A stretch of DNA of 61,370 nucleotides, filler included. It is 13 parts of 13 records of this genome, joined end to end, with 100 filler letters (N's around TTAATTAATTAA, not from the genome) between each part and the next. Parts side by side here need not be neighbours in the genome. Positions count along the whole stretch, not along the records: positions 45,021 to 48,842 come from SRR15195285_991; 12 more parts are not named here. One strand, 5' to 3'. Below the pieces are notes generated by a model, which was given only the letters and a program-made list of their open reading frames with translations, was not told where the DNA came from and did not search any database. Shown in pieces: positions 1-57,858 of the stretch (the first letter of the stretch is position 1; each line of letters starts with the position of its first letter). Position numbers and translations under genes: made by a program.

Positions 1-252
1 GAGCTGGTGCGCGGCGCTGCACCAGGGCGTTGCCAAGTCCGAGACCGAAAGAAAGCACTGAAGGCTGCAAAGAAGGGCGAGCGGCGAGCGCAGGCAGAGG
101 AGGACGATGGAGATTCCGCAGATGAAGCTTTCGATTTCGATACTGGCTTTGGCCAGCAGGGAGTCGACGGCAGCGATGAAGAAGGCGCGGCAGACGGAAC
201 AGTAGAAATGGACGAAGAGGATGATTACGGATTTGACAGCGACGACATGTGA
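1..252 (+). CDS. 3' end of an unidentified gene, basic then highly acidic C-terminal tail (5' partial)
   Basis: Open frame from the window start: ...RDRKKALKAAKKGERR...EEDDGDSADE...DEEDDYGFDSDDM*, TGA at 250-252. Convergent with Lon. Confidence 0.55.
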   Translation, partial: ELVRGAAPGRCQVRDRKKALKAAKKGERRAQAEEDDGDSADEAFDFDTGFGQQGVDGSDEEGAADGTVEMDEEDDYGFDSDDM

Positions 253-379
253 AGTGCTGGGCCTGGGTGTATACATTTAAGCTCATGCGTTGCGTCTACT
301 CTTCAGAACCGATCTCAACAACCACAACGTTGCCCACCATCTCATATTGTACAGTATCTCCCCCCTGGCCCAGTTGTTG

Positions 380-3300
380 TCATGACTTATTTACGTCGAT
401 GTTGGGGAAACAGATGGCAAAGACCTCGTCGTAGTCCTGGACGAAGTGACAAGTAAGGCTGTCCCTCTGAAGCAGCACAGTTGCACCCAATTGCAGCATT
501 TTACACGCTATCAGTTGTGTACAGCCATAGCACACGAAAACGCTGTGTACGGGTCGGAGAGCAGCTGTTCTGGGTCTGCGCACCAGTGAATCCGGCAGCT
601 CTTCCCAGTCCTTTCGGTTCGTATGCGGCAAGATGATCTGTTCAACTGCCGACCGACGCGCTGCAATCACCTTTTCTTTTACCCCACCAATTTTCAACAC
701 TTTGCCAGTCAAGCTCAGCTCGCCCGTCATCGCAACGTTGTTGGCCACTGGTTCATTCATAGCCAGTGAAAGCAACGCTGTTGCCATAGTAATCCCTGAC
801 AACCCAGCACACGAGTCAGTAGTGTTGCTGCTGCGTGGACAGCAGCAACACACCAGTCCAACCATAGCCCGGCTGTCAGCAAGCTCCGCAGGCAATGCTC
901 ACCAGCAGATGGACCATCCTTTGGGGTTGCTCCCTCCGGCACATGCAACTGCAGGTCATCACTCTGCAATGTCACGTTGTCTTTTGCAAGTTTGTTCAAG
1001 AACCGGGTCGAGAAAGAGTGCGCGATGCTCAATGACTCGTTCATCACGTCGCCGAGCTGGCCAGTACTTCGAACTCGCCCGACCGCCAGCTCAGTTTCTT
1101 TGCCATCAGCCATACGCGGTCCACCGTTCACGTTCGCACATTCCACATACAGAGTGGAACCTCCCATCGATGTCCAAGCCAGACCCATCACAACACCTGC
1201 CCCAGAGTATAGTGAGTGAGGGACTTCGAAAAGATGATGCAAGCTAAGGCAGCAGATGCTTGGGCGTACCGGGTGGTGTGTTCGCATACATGAGGTCAGT
1301 TGAGTGCACCGGCTTGCCTACTAGCTCTACCAAGGAACTCGAGCTCACGACCTCTGGAGTTGCTGCTTCCCCACGGACAACTTTCAATGCAACCTTTCGC
1401 AATATCTTTTCAATGTGCTGACCCAAGTTCCGAACACCAGCCTCACGGCAGTAACCAGTTATCAGTTCCCTCATCGCCGATTCTTTCAGCACTACCTGAT
1501 CCTGCGTCAAACCGGAAGCCTCTCGTGCAGTTGGGACTAGATAGCGGTCAGCGATCGACACTTTCTCGTCCAAAATGTATCCAGACAGCCGGATCACTTC
1601 CATACGGTCGCGAAGCGGCCCTGGAATTGTGTCAAGCAAATTTGCGGTGCATAGAAAAAGCACTTTTGACAAGTCGATCTCCAAGTCTAAATAGTGATCG
1701 ACAAAGTTTGCGTTCTGCTCCGGGTCCAGCAGCTCAAGCAGTGCTGACGCTGGATCGCCGTTGTGAGCCGAGCCCATTTTGTCAATCTCATCGATCAGAA
1801 CAACCGGATTCATGCTTTCGGTTTTCTTCAGAGCCTGAACTAGTTTCCCAGGCATGGCGCCCACATATGTTCTACGATGACCCTTGATCTCTGCCACGTC
1901 GGTAAGCCCGCCCACAGAAAAACGGAAAAAGTCTCGCCCCAGTGCACGGGCGATGGATTTCCCGATGGAGGTTTTCCCAACTCCAGGTGGTCCAACCATA
2001 CAGATGACTTTGCCATCGACCTGGCCGCAAAGCGCCCCGACGGCAATAAATTCGAGAATTCGTTCCTTTACGTCTTCAAGGCCGTAGTGATCCTCGTCCA
2101 GGATTACCTGTGCGGCAGCAGGATCAAGTGTTTCCTTCCGCATTTCTCCCCACGGTATGATCGATAACCAATCTAGATAGCTCCTGCAGAGCAGCACTCG
2201 ATGGTCAGCATAACAACCACAGATGCAATCTAAGCACCTCAAGATATATGCAATACCGTGTCACGTTGAACTCAGATGAGGCCGTCTCTAACGTGTTCAG
2301 CTTGGCTATTTCTTCGTCAATGACTTTTTGAATCGCCTCTGGTACTGTGCGTGCTGACAGGCGCTCCTGGAACTTCGTAATCAATGCCTCCTTATCGTCC
2401 TGTGGCAAGCACATGCTCAAAAGAACGGAGACGCAAGCGAGGATAGATGCAAGTACTATATATCTCGGAGTACCTTTTCAATGCCCAGCTCACGCTTAAT
2501 TTGCTTGAGCTGCTCGTTCAGGAAGTACTTTCGCTGGTTCACTGAGATTTTTTCTTCGACCTCTTTTGCCAGTTCCTTCTGAAGCTCCATCATTCGTAGC
2601 TCTTTCTTCAGCATTACGAGCGTCAGAGAAAGCCGTTCGTACATGTTCAGCTCCTCCAGGATTTCTTGAAGATCAGCACCCTCTGCAGACGACAATCCAG
2701 CGAGAAAATCGCACAACCTTGCAACGTCTGATGGAAGATCATTCGACCAGTTCATTAGCAGATTGTCCTTCAAAACATCAGACACTCGACAGTCAGTAGT
2801 TGTAGCTCACGATGGCGAGCGATGTTCCTATTTGACCTATATTGACTGTACGGTACGGAGCCAAATGAGGGTGACGTCTAGTCAATACCTTGTACAGAGT
2901 GTTAAGCTTCAGCATGTCACGCATAGTGAGCATGATTTCATTCGTGTAGGCTTTCACGTCATCTGATGTTTGGTCATATTCCAGATGTTGGTTGTCGAAG
3001 TGCTCCACGTTGACCTGTTCTCGTGACACGTGCGAGGTCAAACTTGCCACTTACGTGAGGTGTGCGTGCGCGCGTGCGTGTGCGACTACAGCAAACTGAC
3101 CTTGAAAACAGGTTCATCTTCCGCCACCCCTGTGACCCGTATGCGTCGGTGAGCTCGGAGCAGCAGCAGCATACCACCGTCGTTGTTGGGTTCAGGTTCC
3201 ATTCTCTCGATGGATGCCAGCATGCCCATCGGGTGTATCTGATCGACATCGGTGATGATGTCTGGAGAATTGCCCTGGGTGGTGAAGAATGCCCCAACGT

Positions 3301-6493: not shown

Positions 6494-9287
6494 TCACGCA
6501 CACGCTGGCGGAGGCAGCAGGCCGACCAGCACGACCGACATCCCAACAGACACCGTGCCACCAACTAAGCCCGCTCCCCAGTTTTCCACACTGTCCTCTG
6601 TCACTTCCTCCGGATCGCGCTCCACCGCAGCGCGCTCGAGCTCTTTGTAGTACGAGTCCGATACGTCTGATAGTACAAGCTCCATCACGATCCGTTGGGC
6701 ACTTAGGAGCACGGCACTGCCAAGCACTGCCCAGATGCATAATGGCAGCGCCTCGTCCAGTGTAGGCAAAAGGGGCTCATCAGCGGGACCTTGCACTCCA
6801 CAGCTGGTACGGCTGCTGCGGTAAGCGTCCATCAGCAGTAGTACCCAAGCAATCAGGTGGAGGCACCAGTTCAGGCTCTGACCCACACTCTGGCCGGGCC
6901 CAGGTGCGTGAGAAGCTCTCAGCATCAGCTCTCTTCTCCGTTTGGCTTCACGCTTTTCAGCCTTGGAGCGCTTGCCGCACCTCATACTAAAGCCACAGCA
7001 GCGGCCATCATTGTCACTGGCAGACACAGGCCCACTACGTCGTCTTCGCTCCCGGAGGGCCGTCACTGCACCGAATATGCACACCAGCAACTCGCCAACA
7101 GCAAAACACAGCCAGCCACCTGCGACCTCTCGTGGTGCCAGTCCTCTGCCCGCGCAGCCTGCGGCGATGACAAGCGATGACACGATGTGCATGCCAGCCT
7201 CCATCACACCATACGCGCGGTCGTCGTTACGCAATCGCTCGACAGCTTTCAGTCGCACTCCAGTGGAACCGTCGTGATCCTCATCATCTGAGTCCGAATC
7301 GGGCAGGTGCCAGCTAATGACTGCCAGGTGCACATGATGCGCCACAACCATCATCGCACAGCTTAGGCCTGTCCAGGCCAGCTGCGGCATTGCCGTGACC
7401 CATAACTCCACTAGTGAGCTACTGGCATTCTGCCAGTTCAGCACAATTGCCTCTGTTTTGGCGCCTGATGTGTTGTGCAGAGCGGCACTCAGCCGTGGCC
7501 CAAGCGGCGTCACTCTGGGGGCAGGACCGAGAGTTGCGGCCAAGATGTTGCCCATTGCCACTGTATAGCCCGCAAACGATATACTCACCGCATGAAGGCT
7601 GCCATTGGTAACGCTACCTACAACCTGTAGCGCGCTTCTGAAGCCGCAGACATCATTGCAGCTCTTGGTTTTCTTGCCATGCCGTTTCTTCTTGGCGGAG
7701 CTGATACAACGCAGTGGAAGCTGATAGAAAGTTCGAGTGGTCAGCACACAGAGTAGCGCAAGCAACAGGGCTACGCCTGTGTCAGGAGTGAACACTGCTG
7801 CGCCCTGCTCCGTCTGCAGGCTCTCCTGTTCCAGCACGACGAGCTCTGACGGGAGATCAAATAGTGGAGTGTCAACTGTCCTGTTTTGGTGTACGTCTGA
7901 CGCCACATTCGCAGCTGTGTAGGCAGTAGAAGCGCCACAGCCTCGTCTTGGAATCAGCCCAGCGATGGCAAGGCCAGACGCAAGAATCATCGCACTGACC
8001 ACAAGACCATATCCCCAGTTGTGTTGTTCAGCCATTTTCTTGAAGCTGTGTTTTGTCGAAAATCCAGATGACAAATGCTTCGCAAGCACTGCGACAATCA
8101 GCAGAAGCACCAGACAACCAGCCCCCGCCCACACTGCGAGATGCAACAACTCCACTGATGCTGCAGCTGCTTTGCCCAGAATCTTAGAATAGCTGATCAA
8201 GCACGCTCCATACAGCAGTGCTTTGACAGGATTCCCACGTTTGAGCCGCTGGGCTCCCAGAATTGGGCCACCGAGAGGGAGCCTGTACCTTTCCTGCACC
8301 TTCTCGGTAACAAACGCGTCCACAGACCTTCCTTCGAAGTGAATCACGTTCAGCACGAAACTGAATATCACGAGAGCACCCACCATGCAGAGTATTGCAA
8401 TGCTGGCAGCAATGTTTTGCTCAACAAAGCTCAACGGCGGCTCCGTTTTGCTCTGGGCGCGTGGAGGTAGGGCGCCGCTGACGATTACCCCAGCCGCCAG
8501 AATAGCAACGGAATCCGTGATCCCTGCTGATACATTACCGTCAATCCCAGCTGAACAGATTAGGTGTAGCGGGTGTGGACATAGGCAACGGCGTAGCGCT
8601 AGATTCGCGAGCGCGAGCAGCAACAGCCCGTGAACGACCCAAAAGCAGCATAGGCCGAGATCGTCGAGCCTGGTCTCATAACCACCATCATCGGTCCAGC
8701 TCGCCAGCCACGGATGGCTACTCCCATCGCCCAATGTAGAGCTGCTGTTCGCAGCCGAAGATATCGCGCCGGCACCCCAATGGGCACGGGCGAATGCCTG
8801 TGCCACACAGCACGAGTTATGCGTCATGAGCGGCGGCAGTGTGTGCACATTGAGAAACTGATGGGCTTACCGTGTGGACGACAAGACTCGCCGATAGAAT
8901 CGCCGCGGCGAAGCACAGCTGCAAGGCTGGCTGGGCTAGGTGCCGAACGTCTCTGCTTGAGTGACCTTCGACCTCTAGCATCGACGAGACGCTGTCTCGC
9001 GAGACGCTGTCTCGGGACACGCCATGGTGTTTGCCGCGCCGCTTCCTACGGCTTCCGTGAACGCGCCCGCCGTCTTCGTCATCGCTGCCAGCGCATCCAC
9101 AACAACCCGCGACGAACGACTGGAAACACCCGTTGCCATCATTGGAGCGCAGCTCAACTTCATAGAGCCGCCGGAACAGCGAATCGCTGACTCCCAGCGC
9201 TGCGATGGAGAGCAGCACCTTAGGGCAGTTCGACCAGTCCATGAGCAGGCCAACCGACAACGCCTCCTCGCCGGTCGTGGAGTTCAT
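6494..9287 (-). CDS. Polytopic membrane protein with repeated DUF350-like helical hairpins (2 exons)
   Basis: ORFs 8817-9287 and 6494-8848 are joined by a GTAAG...CACAG intron (about 8871-8799). Repeated motifs: NPVKALLYGACLIS, NWGYGLVVSAMILASG, AVSISFAGYTVAMG, AYGVMEAGMHIVSS, NWGAGLVGGTVSVG. Confidence 0.65.
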
Positions 9288-14872: not shown

Positions 14873-16840
14873 ATGCAGGGTTGCAAGGCATGGCTGATGC
14901 ACGCCGTCCCACCTCTGGTTCTACTGCTGCTTCAGCGCGGCCGAGGCATCCCACTTGATCCCAGCCAGCGCCAACTTCACCCAGCAGGACAATGCAAGCT
15001 GTGCCCTCACCATAGCGACGTCATTGCCACATCCCGTGCTGTTCATTACACACCAGACCATGGCTATGATACCTGGAGTGCGATGCAGGCGTTCCACGCA
15101 ACCCGCCTGGACTGGGTGTACAACCGCAACGCCAGCTTCGTTTCTGAGGCCCACGAGCGTGGCTTCGAGGTGTCACTTGCGATGAACCCGCAGTGCCCTG
15201 ACGCGGAAGGGAAGTACGACCAGTATCGCGTTCAAAATATTCACGGGCGGCCGCTTGTTGCTCCGTGGATGAGGGCGTGGAAGGGAGAACCGCGCAACTA
15301 CGGCTGTGTCAACAATCCTGGTTATCTGCAAATCGCGTTAGATTTTGGCTCAAACCTGTTGAAAATCGGATCAGACGCAATCCAGCACGACGACCCTGGC
15401 GCAAACGGTGAAGCATCCACCTGGAACAACGGCGACCCAGAGCAGAGTGGCTGCTACTGCGACCACTGCATGTCTGGGTTCACCGCCAGGCTGCTGGATC
15501 TGCTCAGTCCGGTCGAGCAAAATAAGCTGAACGTCACTGCAGATTTCAACTATCGCGAGTTGTTGCTGCACAACCCCTGGAACGGCAGCAATTCGTCAAC
15601 AGTACGGGCACTTCGCCCACTATTCGTGGACTATCAACGCAACGTTTCAGAGCTCTACTTGAGCAATTTGAGGCAGCACCTTGATGAAACTGCACATTCC
15701 CTCGGCCGAACGACTTCGCTCTCTTGCAACGGTGGTGGTGGGTGGTCAACTCATATGGCTTGTGATTATGTACTCGGGGAGCTCAACGCAGCTGATGCAA
15801 CGCCGCAGGGATTGGAAAACATTTTTTGGACGGAGTTGCCAGATGGCAAAGCGCAGGTGATGACGATGCCAAAGCACCACAACAAAACACTGGTGGAATC
15901 ACCTGCCTTCGAAGTTCTGATTCGCACGTCGATCGCCTACACCTACGCACTTGGTTCGAATATGATGGCGCCATGGGACATCTACCTGCCCACCCCGCAG
16001 GCGGAGCGATATTACGGCAATGCCAGCCAGTACGGCGACCTTTATGCATTTGTTCGCCGTCACGCCGCACTGCTAGATGCCACGACATTGCCCGTTCCAA
16101 CCCCGCAACGAGCAAAGCCAAATGGCGGTCGCGGTGGCGAAGCGAACTACAACCATACCTACAATACCGGCAGGTTGGCCACAGGCCAGATGGGTAATCG
16201 CTGGCGCTTCCCATTTCCATTTACATCTCCAGGCTACAGCGGCCCACGCATCAACGGATCGAAATATGAAGGACAGAGTCTCCTCAGTTGCCAGTCTCTT
16301 TGCGACGATGACGACATGTGCAAGGGCGTGTACCTTTCTAGCACTAGCTCGGAGTGCTTTACTTTACACGAGCTTGTGAGATGCGAAACAACGCTACGCG
16401 GTGACAGCTACACGCGCACTGCAAAGGGGCACGCCCATCCTGCACAGCCTTCTTCACCAGTCAGTATCGCAGAGCCAGATGTGCGGCTCAGGCTGCGGGT
16501 CGCGCCAAACCACAGTGTGGCGGCGCTGCACGTGATTGACTGGCGCAATTCTATGCCGAGTGTGTGGACGACAGGGGTGTTGCCGAATCGTACGTTTGGT
16601 CCAATCAGTGTTAACGTGAGTAACTCGGTCCTGCAACCGAAATCGCTGGCAGCTACACGAGGGGCAGGCAGCGACGTTGGCGCTGTTTGTGGTAATCTGC
16701 GATTTTCACTGCATGGGCTAGCCGACACCGCTCCGGTCGTGCTGACAGGGCAGTGCAGCGGCGGAATGACCGTGCTCAAACTACCCAGCCCTGGTCCATG
16801 GTCGATAATCGAGGTAAAGCCCATGGGCCACCGTGCGTGA
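14873..16840 (+). CDS. Secreted putative glycoside hydrolase-like protein with a PAN/apple-like domain
   Basis: Signal-like VPPLVLLLLQ. Aromatic/acidic motifs HATRLDWVY, YGCVNNPGY, DAIQHDDP, MAPWDIYLP. PAN-like SLLSCQSLCDDDDMCKGVYL...C. Intronless. An alternative upstream ATG is at 14720. Confidence 0.6.
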   Translation: MQGCKAWLMHAVPPLVLLLLQRGRGIPLDPSQRQLHPAGQCKLCPHHSDVIATSRAVHYTPDHGYDTWSAMQAFHATRLDWVYNRNASFVSEAHERGFEVSLAMNPQCPDAEGKYDQYRVQNIHGRPLVAPWMRAWKGEPRNYGCVNNPGYLQIALDFGSNLLKIGSDAIQHDDPGANGEASTWNNGDPEQSGCYCDHCMSGFTARLLDLLSPVEQNKLNVTADFNYRELLLHNPWNGSNSSTVRALRPLFVDYQRNVSELYLSNLRQHLDETAHSLGRTTSLSCNGGGGWSTHMACDYVLGELNAADATPQGLENIFWTELPDGKAQVMTMPKHHNKTLVESPAFEVLIRTSIAYTYALGSNMMAPWDIYLPTPQAERYYGNASQYGDLYAFVRRHAALLDATTLPVPTPQRAKPNGGRGGEANYNHTYNTGRLATGQMGNRWRFPFPFTSPGYSGPRINGSKYEGQSLLSCQSLCDDDDMCKGVYLSSTSSECFTLHELVRCETTLRGDSYTRTAKGHAHPAQPSSPVSIAEPDVRLRLRVAPNHSVAALHVIDWRNSMPSVWTTGVLPNRTFGPISVNVSNSVLQPKSLAATRGAGSDVGAVCGNLRFSLHGLADTAPVVLTGQCSGGMTVLKLPSPGPWSIIEVKPMGHRA

Positions 16841-19147: not shown

Positions 19148-21177
<2,030 letters not shown>

Positions 21178-41094: not shown

Positions 41095-43901
41095 ATGGTT
41101 GTTCGCTCCACACCCGGGGCGTGTGCTGCGTTCACGGACCTCGACGCGGCAGAGGCAGAACCGTCACTGGCGAGTGAACCGGAGCTGTTCACCAATATAG
41201 ATCCTGTGAACGCAGAGGAGCCAGCGCCAGTGATACCGCAAACGCCTGGGCAGGTGACGTTGGCTGCTGACCATCAGCAAGGTGCGACCAACACTGTGAC
41301 AACTGCGGCGGCCCCGTTGCAGCCACAGGGCGAGTGTGCGCACAATCGCGCTGCAACAGCTTCGGCGAGACGGGGAAGTCGGGAAGGTCCTGACGAGGCC
41401 AGCAGAAACGGTGGCGAAGAGAAGTTTCCAGTCCGATCTGGCTCTCGCGGATTCTGGGATCTGGGATCTGGTCCGATTCGTTTATCTGGTCCGATTCGTT
41501 TATCTGGTCCGGCTCGTTTGTCACCACTGCGGCCCGACAGAAAAGATTTCCCGTGGCGAGATCCAGACATGGATGTGAGGACGAAAGCACGCTTGTTCAC
41601 CAAAGCAGTTGTGGCGGCGCGCGCTGACAGCGGGGCCGCTACGGCTGGAGAGTCGCTCGACCACGAGGAGGCGCGCCACGTGATGGAGCGGGTCTGGGAT
41701 TTTGACATCGGCAAATTACAGGAGCACGCGCTGCGGACGGGGGCCGACCCATTGCAGATTTTGAAGGCTGGCGCTGATGGCTTATCGGATCACCCTGGGC
41801 TGCAGATTCTCGACGCTAGAGAGTCGGTGCAGGCATTCATCATCATGCGACTAGTCAAAATGCCACCATCGTTAGGTGAACAGAGACTGCGAGTGCAAAT
41901 CGAGGGTTTAGGGTGTGGCAATCCTTACTGCGTGCACATGAAGACTGGTGTGTCGTGTCCGGGCGGCTGCAAATGGAAAATCTCTGGTCGCAATGGCCAG
42001 GATATACACAGGCACAAAGGCCTTGTGGAGCTCCGAAAGCTTGCCCTTGTGTGGGATGTGAGCCCACTCGAAGTATTCCACTGTGGATCTATGCCAGATC
42101 TCATGAGCCAGAAGGATAAGCTCACCGCCCTCATCGTCAACCGGGCGCGAAGTCTGGATTTTGTGCGCCCATCCGAACCCGAAGAGCTCTCTGCGCGTGA
42201 TAGCAGCCAACAGACTGATGCTGATCTCGCCAAGGTAATGCGAGACCAAGAACACTTACTCTTGGTGGGACGGCTACGGACGGACGGGTTGGCATGGGCG
42301 GAGGAGCCGCTGACCTGTTGCAAGGGTCGAGCCCGCTGTTGCTGCGCGATCCGCAGTGCGTCGCTGCAGATCGTGATGAGCATGCAGGGCACCGTCCTAG
42401 AATGGTGCATCAAAGGCGTCCAGATGTGGATCTCTGTGAGTGTATATATCGTCACGCGTATTCTCGTGAGACGTTTTCGGAAGCCTGAGGAGCAGCAGCA
42501 GTTCCCGCCGATGGACGCACCACATATCATCGGTGGATTCCTGTCATTCTTTCTAGTGTTCTACGCTAGCCAGGCATACGACAGATTCAACTCGATGTAT
42601 GCCAATTCCATGCAATGCTTGGGGATAATCTTTGACGTGTGCACACTCGCGAAGGTCAACCTCGATGCGGCGGCCGCCATCCGGATATGGCGTCACGTGA
42701 ACTTGGCGCACATACTGGCTTACACGGATGTCTCCGAGACATACGCCGTGAGCAATTTTCTCGAACCGATGAATCAGAAGTATGGACTTTGCTCACGTGC
42801 CGAATGGAGACGGGTCTTGGAACTCAATCCCGACTCTAGCAGCGACGCAACACGAGAGGCCATCGCGTGGGCTATGAATGATGTTGTGATGCAGACGAAA
42901 CCGATCGAAAGACCTCACCGTGCGTTGCAGCATATGTCTTTGCCTGCGCTCATCAAGCGAGCCAAGCGCGCTCGAGTCCCAGTCCACATGTACCGCGAGT
43001 CTTCGCCTTTGCACAAGATGGCTTTCCCTGCCGATAGTGTGGAGCCACTACAGCCAATAGATGAAGAGAGAAGTGAGCTCATCAAGGCGATCTTGAAAGA
43101 CCCGAATGCTGCACCACCTGTTCACACATGGAACATCAATGCGGTCATAGAATGGATCACGGATCTTGATGGTGTCGTGGTCGATGATGTTGAAGCCGTC
43201 AGTGCAGCCCTAAAGAAAAACGGTATAACCGGATCGGATATGCTGCGGCTGACACCAGACCGTCTCGACACGCTAGGCATCGGCCGGATTCACTCTCAAT
43301 TGCGCATCATGCAAGCAATCCATAGTTTGACCGGCGAAAAGGAGGTGCTACCCCCCCCCCTGTAGGCATAAAGATGGTCAACGATATCCTGGGGCTCCGT
43401 GGCCAGCTTGCCCGCCTGTACGACAGCCAATGGCCGGTTCCGTTCTTCTACATCCACCTACTGCACCTCACATGTGCGATCTATTTGCCTATCTTCGCCT
43501 ACTCTCTCGCACTGGGCTCCGAAATACCCGAGAGCTGTGATTCCGTAGACGACCGCAGCATGTGCTGGAACAAACTGTGGTGGGAGCTTTCTGGCATGAT
43601 CATGATCAGTGTGCAGAACATCATTGTGATCGGCCTCGTTCGCTCTGGTCAACAGCTCTCTGATCCGTATGGTGATGATATTGTCGACCTTCCGGTCCGT
43701 AGCTGGGTATTGTGGGCTTTGGATGCCAGCAAGGCCACGCTGACATCCTCGTCCGATCCGGTGGCACCAACTGATCGTATTGAGGCAGGCATTGAAGACC
43801 TGAGACCTGCCGCAAACAACAAGGTTAGGAGACGACTGAAAACATTGTTGAGCAACGGCAAGATGAAAGAAATGACAAAACAACACGCAGCAGCAAGATA
43901 G
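41095..43901 (+). CDS. Bestrophin-family anion channel with an inserted SAM domain; frame break at the C10 run 43351-43360
   Basis: GGFLSFFLVFYASQAYDRF, PVPFFYIHLL, LSDPYGDDIVDLP. SAM-like VHTWNINAVIEWI...LKKNGITGSDMLRLTPDRLDTLGIGRIHSQLRIMQAI. Confidence 0.8.
41468..41521 (+). repeat. 18-bp coding tandem repeat x3 (SGPIRL)
   Basis: tctggtccgattcgttta x2 followed by tctggtccggctcgtttg. Confidence 0.9.
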
Positions 43902-45020: not shown

Positions 45021-45063
45021 GGCTCTGGCTCCGGCTCCGGCTCTGGCTCTAGCTCCGGCTCCG
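45021..45063 (-). repeat. Coding (Pro-Glu)n hexanucleotide repeat at the contig end
   Basis: ggctct/ggctcc repeats encode PEPELEPEPEPEPEP, the likely cause of the assembly break. Confidence 0.85.
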
Positions 45064-48000
45064 GTGCAGACGGCGGCACGCCCTCAGGCATTTGCAGCCC
45101 TGCAGCGTTGCTAGCGGTCGTGATATCATGCGAGCAGCCCGGCCACTCGTGCTCGATGACTGCCTCGAGCTCTGCCTCGAATACCCGCAAGCTGCCCAGA
45201 CATGCGCCGTGAAGACCGCCGGCGCGACAACGAGCCTCCAGAACGACGCCAGTCGCGCCCTTCTGTCCGATCGACACCTCTATCCGCAGCGCCCTTGCTA
45301 TATGCGCGACAATCGCGTGCTTCATCTGCTGTTTTGTCTCGGCCTCCAGTGCCGTCTCAACGACATCCGAAGCCACGCCCGCGCTCAAGGCCTCCGCCTT
45401 CAGCTCCTTCATCGTCAGGGACGACAGTGCTGTCAGGTAAGGGCTCCCAGCGATCGCATCGGGAACTGCAGCGCCCTCGATCCTTGCAATCGTGACCAGG
45501 TCGCGCCGCCACACCACCGTCTCCTCGCCACACCACTTTGCGCAGCGACTCAGTACGACTGCCAAGAAACCCGGTGGCAGTGGCTGGTGAAACTCGAAGC
45601 TACGCACGACGGCATCCACGCCGGCAGGGTCGCCATTCAGACTTTCAGCCAGCTCGGCCAACGATCGATGCTTGTGCACATCAACTTCCTTGCTCGCCGC
45701 CTCCAGAAGCACCTCCTGTGTCTGCTTGAGCTGAACTCTGATTATGCCACCGGGTGTCAGCTGATCTGCCGACTGGATCACGAACGACGTGCCGCATGGC
45801 ATGACTAGCTCGTCTTCGCTCGGAATGTGCGAATATTCTTGCACGTCCCGGGCGCAGCTGCTGCTGATGCAGAAGATTACTCGCTTGCCGTCGTTACCAG
45901 CGAACTGCTTCACGACGCCCAGATTGGTTGAAGTCGAAGAAAACGACCACCAGACCACTGGCTCACCAGCTTCAGCATCGTGCTGCAGCTCCTCGAGCGA
46001 AATGTCCGGCCGCGGATCCTTGATGCCACGATACAGGAACTCGCCGCTCTGGACCTTGACGATTGCAGCCGGCGAAATGCCAGCGGAACCTGCCGGAACT
46101 CCAGGCACATGCTCCGCGCTGCTGTCCGCTGGGTTCTGAGTCACGAAGTCGCTCCAATCCACCACTTTTGCTGCGACGAGACGCTTGATCGCTGTGCTGG
46201 GCGAAGACTTCAGTTGTTGCACCAGCTGCAGCGCTTCCGACTGACTTGCCAGCTTAAGCTTGTCGACGGCACCGAGAAACTCATGGATCCCCTCCTTGAG
46301 GTCAACCGGTGGCAGTTTCAGCAGAGCTCGCTGCAGCAGCCCGATATATAGCCAGTACGGCCGAACTTTCTCGGGCTGTTGAGAGCGGAGTGCGCTGTTC
46401 AACGGACGGTACAGATTCGCTTTCTCGTCGGGCGAAGAGTGAGTATTCTCCTGCGTGTACAGGTTGATGGCTGCTATCTCGTCCCGGTTCAGCTCATTCG
46501 CGTCGCACGATGCACCCTGTAGAATGATGGAATCTGCTTTCGCGAACGCAATTTCCAGCCCTTTCGCAAGCTCCTCGGCGAGCATCGTGCCAGTCTTCAC
46601 AATCGATGCAATCGCATCCTCAAGCCCAACTTGGGCCGAATTCACAGCAGCGCCGTCTTCCATGCCAGCAAGGAAGCGTGTGAACTGGCTCCGAGCTGCA
46701 GCAGCTGCTAGGGCCTCTCTCCGATCTGGCAAACGCATTGGCAGCAGCAACTGATCGGCGATGCTCAGCCTCGTGAGTAGACCAAGTTCCACAAGCAGAT
46801 CGACGATGAAATCCATCTGTGCCGGATCGTGGACAATCGGCGGCTGCAGGCCACGCCACAGCCACGGCAGCAGCGTAGGCCTGTCCAGTTCCCCTCGGGC
46901 CAAAAACCGGTGCCCCAGATCCTGAAGCTGCGCGTGTGCAGGATCAGCTGATGGGTCGAGCTGATTCAATCGCCGGGCGAGGTCATGGTCCACCAGCACT
47001 TTCATCACATCCACCAGACGCTGCGGTTCCAAAAACACACGGTCTCGGAGTGCCGGCGAATGGGAGTCAGGAAACAACACCTCGCCAGTAATCCGCAGGT
47101 ACATCATGGCGCGGCGCACCAGCTCAGGATCAGCCGCAATCTTCCGGGCTACTTGACAGCGCCGCTGCTTCAGGTAGTCGATGTTGATCTCGGGGCCCAT
47201 CAGCTCCTGAAAGAGCTGAGCGGCTTCGTCTGGCCATGTCTTCCACGAGACGAACAGCTCGTTGTAGTACTGCTGCAACTCCGTAGCTCGCCGTGCTGCA
47301 TTCGCTTCGTCATGCGTCATGTCACGCCCTACACTCCACCAGTGATCTGGGAATGCAGGGAGACTTTCAACCAAGGCAGACAGCCGCTTGTGCACAGCCT
47401 TCGCGCTGCGATGGCGAACTGTAAATTCCGTTGCTTTTTCTCCCAAAAGCGATAGCGAGAAGGTATACTCCCGGAAGCTGCTCTCGGCGGCCTCTTCAGG
47501 CGCCGCAGATGTCAAAAAGGCCTCCATGCCATCGCGCCATCGCTGGAGCTCCAATGCACTTCCGGCGTCAAACGCGGTGATATTTGCTTTGGTGCCTGCC
47601 GACACTAGCTCGAAACTGAAAGGCCTGTCCGGCCACGGCTTCCGAGGCTGCCGCATCGCAACCCCTGGCACAGTCAGATCGACCGAGATTGGCGCTGACC
47701 CGACAGCTACGGTAAATGTGCCAGTGCTCGAGATTTCAGCACGACAGACAACAAGCTCGGAGGCATCAGCCAACGGAGTCAGCTTGCCAATGATCCCCAG
47801 CGCCTCGTCTGCTGCCCGTGGCACGGCGGGCAGTGCGCCCAAGATCGCAGCGAAATCGTCGTGGCCGTGCTCCGTCGCCACCTCCGCCGCTGTTTGCCCG
47901 GTATCAGTGAGCACAGTGCCGTCGAAGATCACGCCCTGATCAACAAGCCAGCGATACTCATCGACTGCGCCATGGTACGCCAGCTGGTGGAGCAGGCCGT

Positions 48001-48842
48001 ACCGACGGTCTCTGGGCACCGAGTTGATCATCTCGTTCGGCAGTGCACACGGAGCATCTCTCGCCGAAAACAACTGCTGCTGCATCTCCGACCATCTCGC
48101 ATGCTTGGCAGCGTGAACGACGCTCTGCAGCATCTTCATCCGCGCCACGCGGTCGACTGACACCTCCGAGCGGACCAGTTCAACCACGAAATGTGCATCG
48201 ACAGCATCCACATCAGGAGGTTCGGTTAACACCTGCTGCAGGTGTTCGCACGTCACAGACGACTGCTCCGCACACAGAGTCCTTGCTGCCCGCAGGATTG
48301 ACACATATGTGTTCGGCTGCGGCCTGCCAAACTCAGGGAAGGCATCGCTGTCGAAGGCTGCGGTGACCAGCTGCTCACGAAGATCCGCGAAGCCGGCAAG
48401 CGTCTTCGCACTGACGGCAATCGCTTCCTCTGACAGTCGCAATGGCTGAGAAACTACCCGCTGCAGGTGCCGAATCCGTGCAGCGTAGGCCTCTGGGTCC
48501 CTGTCTCTGAGACCGTCGAGCTCTCGCTCCTGTGCGGCTGCAGTTGTGCGTAGGGAAGCACTGATTGCGGTGACCATCTGGCTGCATCGCGAGCGCACAA
48601 GCGACTGGTCGTCGATCTCATCGGCGTGGCTGGCCACGAGGATCACCTTGGAACCCGGCGCGCAGGTCTGGATCAGAGTAGCCCAACCAACCATCTTCTG
48701 CTCCATGGACTCCAACGCCTCGACCTCACCAGCTGCCGATCCAGGAGAATGGGCGGAGAGTGCCACGTTCCACACCAGCACGTACAAGGTAGCCTCCGAC
48801 AGAAACGTCTGGTGCATCTCCTGGTACTCGTCGTGCCCGCCC
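45021..48842 (-). CDS. Roco-family (Roc-COR) GTPase with ankyrin, PH, PX and ADP-ribosyltransferase insertions (partial at both ends)
   Basis: Uninterrupted frame across the contig. Roc: GGHDEYQEMHQTFLSEATLYVLVWN, ILVASHAD, AVSAKT. COR: LRITGEVLF, RVFLEPQRLVDVMKVL, LLVELGL, LPPGFLAVVLSR, VVWR. ART: LYRG, WSFSSTST, SEDE. Confidence 0.85.
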
Positions 48843-53834: not shown

Positions 53835-56800
53835 GTTGAGGGAGTGTACTTCGCATCGGCACAGGTCTCAGCTACTGAAAGTCCCTCTATAGATGCTCTT
53901 TTGGCCGTAAACGGGCAGCACGACTTCGACAGCACCATATTCTTGTCGGCCGTGTCTGATACCCTCAACATCGCAGGCCTTTTGCGTTTACGTCCAGACG
54001 AATACGTATCTTTGTGGGTTCGCGGCATGCAGCCTTTCACCGTGGGGTCTAGGTCAAGTTTTGGCTCAGTGCTGATTTCCACACCCACGCTTGGACCGGC
54101 ACTTTCTTCAATTTCGTTGCTTGGATATTCAGGAACTCCGATGTCAGTGCAGCACTTTGGGCATGCTCGTGTGCGCGCTGATTCTAGCAATGTCACGCTG
54201 ACAAACGTTTCGCATATGGCGATCGACGTGCGGGTTGCCCGGGAGAAGACCTGCCCCTACGTGGTGGCTTCTGATTTGTCCAGCAGGGACATCCCACCCT
54301 TGAAAATTGCGATTGATCAGTCCGTCAAAGGTACGCAAGGTTCGTATGACATCAAGGCACCTAATGGCGAGATCTTGGTGGGGACTGACGACTTGACTGG
54401 TGCTCTATACCCTTCAGATGGCACGATAATGCCAGCTGCAGGACCATTCTCGTATTCTCGCGTCGGTGCAGCCTCAGGCCGCATAGGCAACGTTGGGATG
54501 GAACAAACTCTGTCTGCGTACATAGAGAACGGAGACATCTCTTTGACTGTGACTGCTCAGGACTACAGCAAGTGTTTGAACGACTGCCAAGGCCGTGGCC
54601 GATGCTATGACGACGGTTCTTGTCTTTGCTGGAGCGGCTATGCTGGTGATGATTGCTCACTGCGCGCCTGCCCGAACCAGTGTTCCGGAAGAGGAACATG
54701 CGACTCGTGGACTGGCACATGCACTTGTGATTATCGATTCGCAGGGGCAGATTGTTCAGCTGTAGCGTGCCCAGAGTTGCAGGCCGGTGGGTTCGAAGCC
54801 TCGCGGCTGGGAGGACAGACGTGCGCATCGTGCCCAGGTGATTCGTTCATTTGTGAAGAACAGTGCAGAGATTATGAAGCTAATGGCAAGACGTGCGCCT
54901 ATGGAGTGTCTGTGCCGTCAATCACAAGTGTAACGAGTATCACGATGACATTCGAATGGGTCTCGACTGCGCTCGTGGGTTCAGTTGCATTGGATGTCGA
55001 TGTAGCGTTCATAGGTGTCGGTACGGCTGCCAGAGTAGATTTTGAGGCTGCGTTCATTTTGGACTTTTCTTCGTTGCTTGGCATTGAACCTGACCGCATC
55101 CGTATAATCGGTATCACAGCTGGTAGTGCAGTTGTCAGCTTTTCTGTACGGCCAGCTGCGGATGGCACAGCACTTGCTGTAGAGGAACTGGAACACGCGT
55201 TCAGTTCTGGTCAAGTTCGGCTCGCTGGAGCAAGTGTGGATGGACTTAGTGGCATCCCAGACGGCAGCGTCGCCGACGATATAGTTGACGCAGTGGCACA
55301 AGTACTGAACATGGAGGACAGACTGCATCTTTTTTCTAGTCCGCGATTTGCCAATCTTTCGGCACCTGCGAGGCTGTGGGAAGCACCAACATGCACAGTG
55401 ACAGTGTACGGCGCAGGAAATTTCTCCGGAAGAGAGGCTACATTTCAACCGGGCAGGTATACAATGAATGACATGCAAGCCCAGGGAGCAAAAAATGATG
55501 ATATCGAATCGCTACGAGTGGGATGGGGATGCGAATGCCAGCTCTGGGCCTCGTCCCTTGGTGGGGCTGGATGGCGCGAAACATTTGCTGCTGGCGACTA
55601 CGATGCAACTATGATCGAGGCAACGTCGGCTGAACTCAATGATGCATCCGCCATGATCGTGACTCAGGTGGCATACGAGCCTGTGCCCACCTTGCTTCAA
55701 GCAACTGTTGAGGTGACAGCGGAGTTGCAAGACTCTCGGCTGTTCCTGGAAAAGATGCTACCATCGGCAAACTACGTAGAACAGGTAGACCCGATGACAA
55801 GTCGCACCGTACACGTTCTGGACGCATATAGAGAAACTAGCGATACGCCTGCAGTTTCGGTGGCGGGATTACAGATGCTCGAGGCGCAACTTGACATCAG
55901 ATGCCCGAATGACTGTTCTGGGAATCATATTTTCTGCGACCAAGACTACGGTTTCTGCAAGTGTCAGCCTGGCTTTTTCCGTGACGACTGCGCTCTGCTG
56001 CAATGCCCTGGAATGTGCAACGGCCGCGGCCGCTGTGACGTCTATACAGGCACATGTGAGTGCTTCAGTGGATACACTGGCATGGGATGCGAAATGATTC
56101 TGTGCGAGCACGATTGCGCTGTAGCACAGCGGTCCGGCGAGTGTGATTACAACACCGGCCTCTGTGAATGTTCTGGACAAGCATATGGTGACCGTTGTCA
56201 GTATCTCCTCTGCCCTGGGAATTGCACCTGGCCCTCTGGCGGTAATTGCAACCCCAGCAATGGTGCATGCGCATGCAACTCTGGGCGCTTTGGGTACGAT
56301 TGTGCCAACATTCTCTGTCCAGGCTCGCAAGAGGCTACTCTCGACATTCTCTTGACGGCTGACCCGAACGAAAAAGCGGTGTGCAGTAGTGCACACATCA
56401 CAACAAGATACTCGATTCTCTACGATGATGACGAGGCCGCTATGGGCGGTCTAGGTCTCGATTGTTCTACAGGCTTGTCTTTAAACATGTGCGAGGATGG
56501 GGGTAATGCCTTCAAATGGGCATGCAAGTGTTCGTGCAGGGGTGAGTGGGATACTCGCCCGTGCTTCACCGGTTCGAGCTTTGCCCAGTACACCGGGGAT
56601 GCCAAATACACAGAAGAAGGTGGCAGGTGCATGGACTGGGATGGTCGTAATGGAGTGGCAGACTCAGTTGAAAACAGGTGTCGGCGGCCGACGCCTCATG
56701 GGCTGCCTAATCCGTATGGGCCCTTTGCACAGCCGTGGGGCGAAGAGCCATGGTGCTATCTCTCACCGAACGATGCTCCGTTCATGCTTACCGTCCGGGA

Positions 56801-57750
56801 TCCTGATGGGACAGTTAATCGTGGAGCAGGCACCCCCCTTGTTGTCGAGTTGCGGCTAGAATATGGTGCGCCAACAAACCGTAGCTGGTTCGAGGGGAGC
56901 CTCCAGGACGCACTATCTAGCGCGCTGCGAATGCCTGCCAGATTCGTCGAGCTGCTGTCGTTTGAGGAGGGCGATTATCCAGCTGCAACGTACAGACTGA
57001 ACCAAAGCTTCACAGGCTGGCCAACGATAGCTGGTGTGGGTTCCTTGCTGGGAGAGCTCACAGGCGAATCGATCGCGGACAACTCAACAGTTCTCGCCGG
57101 AGTCAGTGTGATAGCGGGTGAAGACTTGCTGTTCCCTTCAGTTGATACCGACCGCACCGGACTCTTAAACAGCTCGGAAATTTCGCACATGATGGCTTTC
57201 TTCTTTCAGTACCGAGCGGGTAGACAGTATATTGATAATTTGCGGTCGAGGTTTGGTGGGTATGATCGAAGTGTCGACCTGACAGAGTTCGGGCCACTCT
57301 GGAATTTCTTGAATGGCCGCCTCCGTGACGGTCGCTTGTGCGTCGCGCCAGCGAGGAATGACAGTTCTATCCGCGTGGAACCTTGTGTCGACCTCGGGCA
57401 GATTTCTAGTCGCGGAGAACTGTGGACTGAGGAAGGCTACATCCCCGAACCTCAGCTATGGGAGTCATATAATGCGACCGGCAACTTTCGGGTCATTCAC
57501 AAGAACCGCACCAACGAAACGGCGTTTGGGCTGCAAATGCACTATATGCTACCATTGTACAGCACGCTTCCAGGATTTGATGAGAAAGATGCAGTCCGGC
57601 GAGCTACACAGAACAAAGTATTCGGGTCTGGAACGGCAACTGCTGGCGCGGCGGTGGACGGAGAAGGCTATCGCGCGTACCATGCCACGCGATTCAACAT
57701 CCTTGCAGCTGCAACTGAGTTGTCGTCGTCGTCGTCGTCGTCGTCGTCGT
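53835..57750 (+). CDS. Large extracellular mosaic protein: tenascin-type EGF repeats, beta/gamma-crystallin-like, kringle-like and EF-hand-like segments (partial at both ends)
   Basis: CPNQCSGRGTC...CTCDYRFAGADCS-type repeats; VTVYGAGNFSGREATF...NDDIESLRV; YTG....TEEGGRCMDW...NRCRRP...PWCY; DTDRTGLLNSSE. Confidence 0.85.
57722..57750 (+). repeat. (GTC)n microsatellite, poly-Ser, at the contig end
   Basis: About 9-10 copies of gtc directly before the spacer. Confidence 0.9.
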
Positions 57751-57858
57751 NNNNNNNNNNNNNNNNNNNNNNNNNNNNNNNNNNNNNNNNNNNNTTAATT
57801 AATTAANNNNNNNNNNNNNNNNNNNNNNNNNNNNNNNNNNNNNNNNNNNNGGCGGGCG

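Follow-up and report, generated by a model that had tools for sequence, protein, structure and literature searches.

Can a Roco protein, a GTPase of the Roc-COR type, hold a toxin-type ADP-ribosyltransferase (ART) inside its own COR domain, and could this enzyme be the output of the GTPase? The question is raised by positions 45021-48842 of a window of 61,370 bases, the window being the whole stretch of DNA that was analysed. A sequence-only reading of this stretch had described one frame of about 1270 amino acids (aa) that begins with Roc motifs and continues with COR motifs, with an ART-like unit lying between the COR segments. A frame of 1273 aa, hereafter P0001, is indeed found on the minus strand, and all the motifs quoted in that reading occur in it where they had been placed. 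The Roco-ART feature is genuine, with further instances in uncultured marine eukaryotes, and the contig accounts for the larger part of a Roco-family protein from an uncultured marine eukaryote. Interest in Roco proteins stems mainly from LRRK2, and their known outputs include kinase, death and TIR domains.

The window consists of 13 contigs joined via N44-TTAATTAATTAA-N44 spacers, and positions 45021-48842 correspond to exactly one of them, of 3822 nucleotides (nt). As the window is a concatenation, the genes that flank the Roco-ART contig in it are not its genomic neighbours. All 1273 codons of P0001 are open, with neither start nor stop, and the gene is therefore cut at both sides by the contig ends.

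4270-4369, 9531-9630, ... 57751-57850: spacers between the contigs of the window
45023..48841, minus strand: whole open frame P0001, 1273 aa, cut by the contig ends on both sides

The joined nature of the window had escaped the sequence-only reading, as had the splitting of COR-A, an 86-aa insert within the ART and a helical insert within COR-B, all of which are described below. That reading had proposed extending the contig towards the P-loop and the C-terminus; past position 48842, an RNA contig (X6 record 32) extends the stretch by 728 nt and a DNA contig (X1 record 8) by 642 nt, and loose ends of an RNA contig continue as ..YDAGGHDEY, the same as in the relatives, one of which (P0012) displays the P-loop.

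The ART cassette and its insertion point

The ART is recognized by profile, by sequence and by predicted fold. Its features are as follows.

45707..46723, minus strand: ART cassette, aa 707-1045 (about 340 aa), with lead helices and an R-S-E mono-ADP-ribosyltransferase fold at aa 734-1041; Pfam, HopU1 sequence and fold matches
46028..46030, minus strand: R938, the catalytic arginine, within LYRG; it aligns with the arginine in VYRG of HopU1
45929..45937, minus strand: S-T-S motif, S969-T970-S971, aligned to STT of HopU1
45809..45817, minus strand: E-x-E motif, E1009-D1010-E1011, aligned to EEE of HopU1
46049..46306, minus strand: 86-aa insert of the ART (aa 846-931), placed after the helical subdomain and before the strand with R938; three helices then coil, with a predicted local distance difference test score (pLDDT) of 71-88

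The Pfam ART profile (PF01129) matches aa 931-1040 of P0001 with 30.6 bits, above its curated cut-off of 22.3, and the relatives reach 27-48 bits with the same profile; ADPrib_exo_Tox (PF03496) scores 14.5, below its cut-off of 23.4. The helical segments LNRDEIAAINLYTQE, LYRPLNSALR and LLKLPP lie at aa 784-845, followed by LYRG (aa 936-939), FSSTST (aa 967-972) and SEDELVM (aa 1008-1014). HopU1 is the best solved relative by sequence (E 1.8e-4), and the alignment pairs LYRG with VYRG, SSTST with MSTT and SEDE with SEEE, so that the R / S-T-S / E-x-E signature claimed at the outset is in register with that of HopU1.

It is also conserved among the relatives. In a 72-row alignment (A2), for which residues were counted over filled rows only, R938 is an arginine in all 35 rows, S969 a serine in 36 of 37 and T970 a threonine in 29 of 37. 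E1009 is a glutamate in 31 of 36 rows (aspartate in three, glutamine in one, alanine in one), and E1011 in 33 of 37 (proline in three, serine in one). Conservation of this kind is what a functional active site shows. Arginine specificity goes together with an ARTT motif of the E-x-E form in HopU1, in ecto-ARTs and in the iota and C2 toxins, and the presence of this form in P0001 points to the same specificity; judging from these residues, the ART is probably an active NAD+-dependent transferase directed at arginine.

The predicted structure agrees with this assignment. An AlphaFold model of P0001 aa 560-1250 (model 1), built from the 72-row alignment, has a mean pLDDT of 87.1 and a predicted template modelling score (pTM) of 0.79. 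Foldseek returned 43 matches in the PDB at E at or below 1e-3, headed by HopU1 (E 4.4e-6), and all the matches listed are ARTs of the R-S-E type. With an aligner independent of Foldseek, HopU1 superposes with Z 16.9 and a root-mean-square deviation (rmsd) of 3.7 over 206 of 232 residues, at model positions 175-482, which correspond to P0001 aa 734-1041. Other ARTs follow, namely Tre1 (Z 15.6), rat ecto-ART2.2 (15.3), XopAI (14.8) and ExoS (13.4), with the C3 exoenzymes at Z of about 12. The span first proposed for the ART, nt 46500-45720, translates to aa 781-1041 and agrees with the HopU1 fold match. Profile and predicted fold thus both bear out the ART assignment, with PF01129 above its cut-off and HopU1 as the closest fold.

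The insertion point is given by a paralogue devoid of the cassette. In P0009, residue 611 of COR-A (LLPMRLP) is followed by COR-B at residue 614, so that the two are joined within three residues, and P0001 aa 706-1059 has no counterpart. The two proteins have Roc, the PH/PX region, COR-A and COR-B in common, with 38% identity in the two longest aligned segments; P0009 has no ART, and a TIR domain follows its COR-B. By this alignment gap, the ART has been inserted cleanly, as a block of about 350 aa, where COR-A meets COR-B.

Since the contig is short, contains neither end of the gene and stems from a fragmented assembly, its arrangement could be an artefact: the contig might be chimeric, or an unspliced intron might have been translated, the 86-aa insert being in frame and bounded by GT..AG. 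The stretch, however, turns up in 19 runs, six of them RNA libraries, that belong to 16 studies of marine or seawater metagenomes. Contigs were mapped over it in four of the runs. The COR-A/ART joint is bridged by a DNA contig (X1 record 6) and an RNA contig (X6 record 31), and the ART/COR-B joint by a DNA contig (X1 record 2) and two RNA contigs (X6 record 26 and X15 record 9); run X15 gives no cover over parts of the stretch. These independent assemblies, from other studies, rule out the chimera that the sequence-only reading had allowed for, as do the relatives of the same layout: a separate metagenome contig of 7154 nt, which encodes P0012, has the same order with a conserved insert, and six further proteins share the full order. 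The intron was likewise rejected. The GC content at third codon positions (GC3) is the same in the insert and in its flanks, RNA contigs cross both of its borders (X6 records 28 and 29; X15 records 10 and 12) with no joint that skips it, and P0012 holds a version conserved at the protein level. The 86-aa insert is coding, and an artefactual origin of the arrangement is barely credible. P0001 and P0012 alone have the insert, which is absent from P0002-P0004 and from P0011.

The Roc-COR core and its nested domains

Around the ART, the remainder of P0001 can be divided as follows.

48347..48841, minus strand: C-terminal part of Roc, aa 1-165, with the end of G3, G4 and G5; alignment with the full Roc of relatives, and model
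48449-48607, minus strand: helical hairpin in Roc between G4 and G5, about 50 aa, aa 79-131; two long helices in the model, common to aligned full-length relatives
48158..48346, minus strand: N-terminal part of COR-A, aa ~166-228; alignment of MbRoco2 RocCOR (4wnr) on the P0012 model, mapped to P0001
47837..48151, minus strand: ankyrin repeats, aa ~231-335, opening the module that interrupts COR-A; sub-threshold Pfam Ank_2 match (E 0.013) and modelled helix pairs
47516..47794, minus strand: PH-like domain, aa ~350-442; seven strands and a C-terminal helix in the model
47192..47494, minus strand: PX-like domain, aa ~450-550; strand-plus-helices unit in the model
46724..47176, minus strand: C-terminal part of COR-A, with LLPMRLP at its end, aa 556-706; 4wnr on model 1 at 2..145, Z 7.4, own hidden Markov model (HMM) E 4e-60
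45107..45667, minus strand: COR-B, aa 1059-1245; CtRoco fold match, aligned to COR-B of P0009
45287..45481, minus strand: helical mini-domain nested in COR-B, about 65 aa, aa ~1121-1185; five helices, pLDDT 87-97
45023..45088, minus strand: Pro/Glu-rich tail ending in an (EP)n repeat; assembly break

The frame opens with GGHDEY (the end of G3, aa 1-6), followed by SHAD (G4, aa 71-74) and SAK (G5, aa 144-146), as the sequence-only reading had proposed. The Pfam Roc profile matches aa 1-74 with E 0.27, over positions 64-119 of its 119. Such a weak score is the result expected for a truncated domain, as the contig begins inside Roc, and the P-loop and switch I of the gene fall outside the contig end. 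Roc is complete in P0012, where the Pfam profile reaches 52.8 bits for a cut-off of 27 and the P-loop reads GPSMAGKS; the profile is also above cut-off in P0002-P0006 and P0008.

COR-A is split by a module of about 330 aa made of ankyrin (ANK) repeats, a PH-like and a PX-like domain. A protein atlas search with aa 215-565 gave ankyrin leads only, all under 0.9. Among the 13 aligned rows of a second alignment (A3), Pfam PH matches six (best E 3.1e-4) and Pfam PX two (best E 7.5e-5), and the predicted secondary structure of the nested region is compatible with both labels. The C-terminal part of COR-A is matched in P0004 by positions 41-141 of the Pfam COR-A profile, with 24.8 bits for a cut-off of 35.3. 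COR-B, for its part, contains FHQPLPPGF (aa 1084-1092) and VVWRRDL (aa 1109-1115). Its nested mini-domain occurs in P0011 and in several fragments but not in P0012, and the best match to its fold is only a death-domain-like helix bundle (Z 6.8).

The Roc-COR tandem is thus interrupted three times, by about 330 aa in COR-A, by the ART of about 350 aa and by about 65 aa in COR-B. This layout is no ground to exclude the protein from the Roco family, since the core still superposes on solved Rocos. Model 1 matches the COR of CtRoco (3dpu_B, Z 12.3, rmsd 3.1, 180 residues, model 44..684; 3dpt_B, Z 12.3, 225 residues, model 10..690) and LRRK2 (9ci3, Z 10.9, model 7..691), with alignments that begin in COR-A and finish in COR-B. 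A second AlphaFold model, of P0012 from Roc to COR-B (model 2; 1200 aa, 105-row alignment, pLDDT 86.1, pTM 0.69), matches MbRoco2 RocCOR (4wnr) with Z 23.4 over 304 of 323 residues, at model 1..741 and spanning the ANK/PH/PX insert. It also matches LRRK1 (8fac, Z 22.7, 405 residues), LRRK2 (9ci3, Z 21.6, 401 residues) and CtRoco in its GTP state (8r4b, Z 21.4, 342 residues). In the predicted structures, the Roc-COR core retains the shape of solved Rocos, with the inserts looping out, and the COR motifs that had been noticed on either side of the ART are part of a COR that superposes across the inserts.

The frame runs out in the Pro/Glu-rich tail. In each of the four runs compared, the contigs add up to a depth of 10,000-31,000 over the (GAGCCN)n / (EP)n repeat at 45021-45064, and many divergent loose ends leave the stretch at 45021-45065. 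With a summed depth above 10,000 in the repeat, the contig end is an assembly break. EP-rich linkers resembling this repeat separate domains in P0004 and P0012.

Relatives, distribution and the other contigs of the window

A word-indexed search returned nine relatives, and the order of the blocks recurs in relatives at 43-57% identity. P0002, P0003 and P0004 are laid out as DUF4116 repeats, LRR, Roc, a piece of COR-A, ankyrin, PH-like, PX-like, the rest of COR-A, ART and COR-B; the block order is common to P0002, P0003, P0004, P0011, P0012 and P0014. As the ART is above cut-off and the block order recurs in relatives, the motif pattern is more than chance. P0012, the full relative nearest to P0001, is encoded by a Joint Genome Institute (JGI) metagenome contig, L001, and is 57.1% identical to P0001 over 1144 aligned positions, with a true stop soon after COR-B. 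At the C-terminus of P0004, an (EP)n linker and a FYVE domain (56.5 bits) are added. Besides P0009, P0028 is a second form with LRR, Roc, COR-A and TIR. The TIR-bearing forms share the ANK/PH/PX insertion in COR-A, which is therefore older than the insertion of the ART.

The family is large and diversified. An exhaustive search with aa 74-1273 as the query yielded 1502 representatives at E at or below 1e-3, 330 at or below 1e-10 and 57 at or below 1e-30. An architecture census was carried out on 159 collected proteins with HMMs built from slices of alignment A2, so that the source sequences match by construction. It found the ART adjoining COR-A and/or COR-B in the right order in 36 proteins, seven of which (the query included) have the complete order COR-A, ART, COR-B, the remainder being fragments. 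COR-A is directly followed by COR-B in 12 of the 159 proteins, and 42 have ART blocks only.

The same cassette is found elsewhere. According to Pfam, it accompanies Tcp10_C, UBA, ubiquitin-DUF4116-SAM, LRR_6 or NHL domains, stands in tandem, or lies at the C-terminus of a Ras-type GTPase, in proteins such as P0040, P0052, P0070, P0092, P0140, P0153, P0157 and P0059. In the Ras-type GTPase, homology is confined to the cassette with its lead helices. The cassette appears to be a promiscuous module among metagenome proteins. A tree of COR-A was built from 24 rows, 14 with and 10 without the ART, after exclusion of rows in which COR-A covered less than 100 aa or had no sequence following it. The ART labels cluster on this tree, with three changes against a mean of 8.0 after shuffling, and none of 500 shuffles was as low. 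ART-bearing forms occupy several separate subclades, and the tree, whose backbone is unresolved, is compatible with one origin of the insertion as well as with several.

A six-frame HMM scan of the other 12 contigs of the window revealed no further member of the family. One CORB_n match, at 16380-16532 (E 0.0018), in a frame of about 50 aa, was taken as chance. These contigs encode ordinary eukaryotic proteins, including a mitochondrial ATP synthase beta and proteins with C2, SAM, GPS-motif, teneurin-type EGF and S28 peptidase domains. Some of them yielded observations of their own.

53835-57750, plus strand: contig open from end to end, 1305 aa, with teneurin-type EGF (EGF_TEN 81.1 bits, EGF_2)
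41095-43365, plus strand: 756-aa frame ending in SAM; nine bases on, at 43374-43901, plus strand, a 175-aa frame with hydrophobic stretches
19570-21177, plus strand: mitochondrial ATP synthase beta; metagenome proteins 91-93% identical, named taxa about 66-81%
6494-8866, minus strand: 790-aa frame with three DUF350 stretches (81.2 bits)

The frames at 41095-43365 and 43374-43901 may belong to a single gene that an intron or a frameshift interrupts. Judging from the ATP synthase beta, the collection searched contains no close named relative of the source organism. DUF350 is a family of membrane domains, mainly bacterial, and would be unusual in a set of eukaryote-type contigs.

Proposed gating, rival accounts and significance

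With the architecture and the insertion point shown, as well as the fold of the ART and its intact, conserved catalytic residues, what does the enzyme do in the middle of COR? The reading towards which we lean, with some reserve, is that the ART inserted at the COR-A/COR-B joint is the output enzyme of this Roco protein, active, switched by Roc-COR and placed on phosphoinositide membranes. Roc-COR would be the switch and the ART the output of the switch, a ready-made R-S-E mono-ADP-ribosyltransferase cassette instead of a post-COR kinase. When CtRoco binds GTP, its COR-B swings through about 30 degrees with respect to Roc/COR-A, and the COR-B dimer comes apart (PMC11052575). As the ART sits where a motion of the CtRoco type is largest, it is probably switched by nucleotide-driven motion; by analogy, a domain tethered by both ends should be exposed, freed or re-oriented by the nucleotide and dimer cycle of Roc. 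The ANK/PH-like/PX-like module, together with FYVE in P0004, would place the protein on phosphoinositide membranes, for instance those of endosomes or phagosomes.

Several observations weigh against this reading. P0001 itself has no P-loop, so the completeness of its GTPase, as judged from sequence, rests on the relatives. Pfam calls neither COR-A nor COR-B in P0001 and scores COR-A in the relatives at 17-32 bits, under the cut-off of 35.3, and the identity of COR therefore rests on predicted structure. The PH and PX calls are weak for P0001 itself: its nested segment matches neither Pfam PH nor Pfam PX, its profile matches in the PDB are weak (E 0.11-0.35; SNX17 0.11, nischarin 0.16, PI3K-C2alpha 0.2), and the best 50 fold matches of both models, which are ART, GTPase and Roco chains, are uninformative on PH and PX. 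Expression of the Roco-ART gene is likely rather than certain, as metatranscriptome libraries can contain DNA. Finally, the cassette exists in many non-Roco proteins, so it may work without control by Roc-COR.

This last point leads to an account in which the ART is active and ungated, Roc-COR and the ANK, PH-like and PX-like domains scaffolding or localizing a constitutive enzyme, and the nesting being an accident of domain shuffling. Such a view draws on the occurrence of the same cassette, lead helices included, in quite different domain contexts, and on the fact that its ends can evidently meet, so that many insertion sites would be tolerable. It is nevertheless unlikely, because the COR-A tree has the nested form in at least five well-separated subclades, because 36 of the 159 proteins retain it, and because the insertion lies at the one joint known to move with the nucleotide state in CtRoco. 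Less probable again is a pseudo-enzyme, that is, an NAD+/ADP-ribose sensor or a protein-binding module feeding into Roc-COR. The 86-aa insert just before the R938 strand might block the pocket, and a few rows of alignment A2 are without one glutamate (5 of 36 at E1009 and 4 of 37 at E1011); however, the invariance of R938 (35 of 35), the near invariance of S969 (36 of 37) and the retention of both glutamates in most rows speak for catalysis under purifying selection, and the closest folds are active enzymes.

Concerning the cellular role of the gated, active ART that we favour, the TIR paralogues, the LRR end of the relatives and the size of the family suggest defence or cell death of the NLR kind, and a role in trafficking like that of LRRK2 is equally open. 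The TIR-bearing paralogues and the hinge motion of CtRoco are compatible with the ideas of gating and of an immune or cell-death role. One could go further and regard the family as a Roc-COR counterpart of NLRs in a marine protist, with an LRR/DUF4116 sensor, a Ras-like GTP switch where NLRs have a STAND ATPase, and TIR or ART effectors, on phagosomes or endosomes marked by phosphatidylinositol 3-phosphate (PI3P), although we consider this extension doubtful. The COR-B swing of about 30 degrees would then open the clamped ART where prey, bacteria or viruses enter, and the TIR (after COR-B) and the ART (between COR-A and COR-B) would be interchangeable NAD+-using effectors of death or defence.

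Comparison with known systems brings out what is shared and what is not. LRRK2 and LRRK1 have the LRR-Roc-COR-A-COR-B core in common with the Roco-ART proteins, and each pairs the GTPase with a second enzyme in the same chain; in these, however, a kinase follows COR-B, whereas the Roco-ART protein has the ART between COR-A and COR-B, a split COR-A and no WD40. The Roco of C. tepidum and Roco2 of M. barkeri share the Roc-COR fold and provide the only mechanistic model used here, but they have neither an output enzyme nor nested domains. Roco-TIR proteins, examples of which are reported in Chondrus (a TPR-ROCO-TIR form, PMC11378527) and in Aplysia (ROCO-TIR proteins, PMC9334734), likewise combine the Roc-COR core with an NAD+-using domain of effector type. 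They differ in that the TIR of P0009 and P0028 is appended C-terminal to COR-B and not nested, and in that its fold and chemistry are unlike those of the ART.

On the enzyme side, HopU1, Tre1, ART2.2, XopAI, ExoS and C3 share the fold and the R / S-T-S / E-x-E residues with the ART of P0001. These mono-ARTs are secreted or injected toxins, effectors or ecto-enzymes, whereas that of P0001 is internal to a multidomain switch protein of cytoplasmic type, contains the 86-aa insert in addition and has lead helices that extend about 30 aa past the part aligned with HopU1. The logic of NLR/STAND receptors, for example plant TIR-NLRs, may be similar, with the LRR of the relatives, a nucleoside triphosphate (NTP) switch and alternative NAD+-using effectors. 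NLR/STAND proteins, however, rely on a STAND ATPase of the NB-ARC or NACHT kind, in contrast to the Ras-like Roc-COR here, and the LRRs recognized by Pfam are few. A Pfam scan of P0001 and 30 relatives detected no NB-ARC or NACHT, and the Roco-ART protein is not a member of NLR/STAND, as its NTPase is Roc.

In a literature search whose coverage left out most subscription journals and supplements, no description of a Roco with an ART was found, in line with the sequence-only reading, which knew of none with an ART inside COR. Co-occurrences of Roco and ADP-ribosylation terms were items of reference lists, as in eLife papers of the Aravind group, Arf ('ADP-ribosylation factor') or PARPs. The concern that the architecture might already be catalogued as common holds in part: it is frequent among metagenomic proteins, and the pair of Roc and ART is implicit in precomputed Pfam lists (JGI labels P0003 and P0004 'GTPase SAR1 family protein'), but no paper describing it was found in that search.

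The coupling of Roc-COR to an output is still argued from one architecture, with a kinase after COR-B. An output enzyme tethered to both halves of COR offers an independent and possibly simpler system for the question whether motion between COR-A and COR-B can switch an enzyme, and the Roco-ART proteins add ADP-ribosylation to the outputs of the Roco family. For ART biology, they offer an example of a toxin-type R-S-E domain built as a module into a eukaryotic signalling protein, where it is presumably regulated. Together with their TIR paralogues, they are a candidate for innate-immunity-like signalling in a group of protists without a cultured, genetically tractable member.

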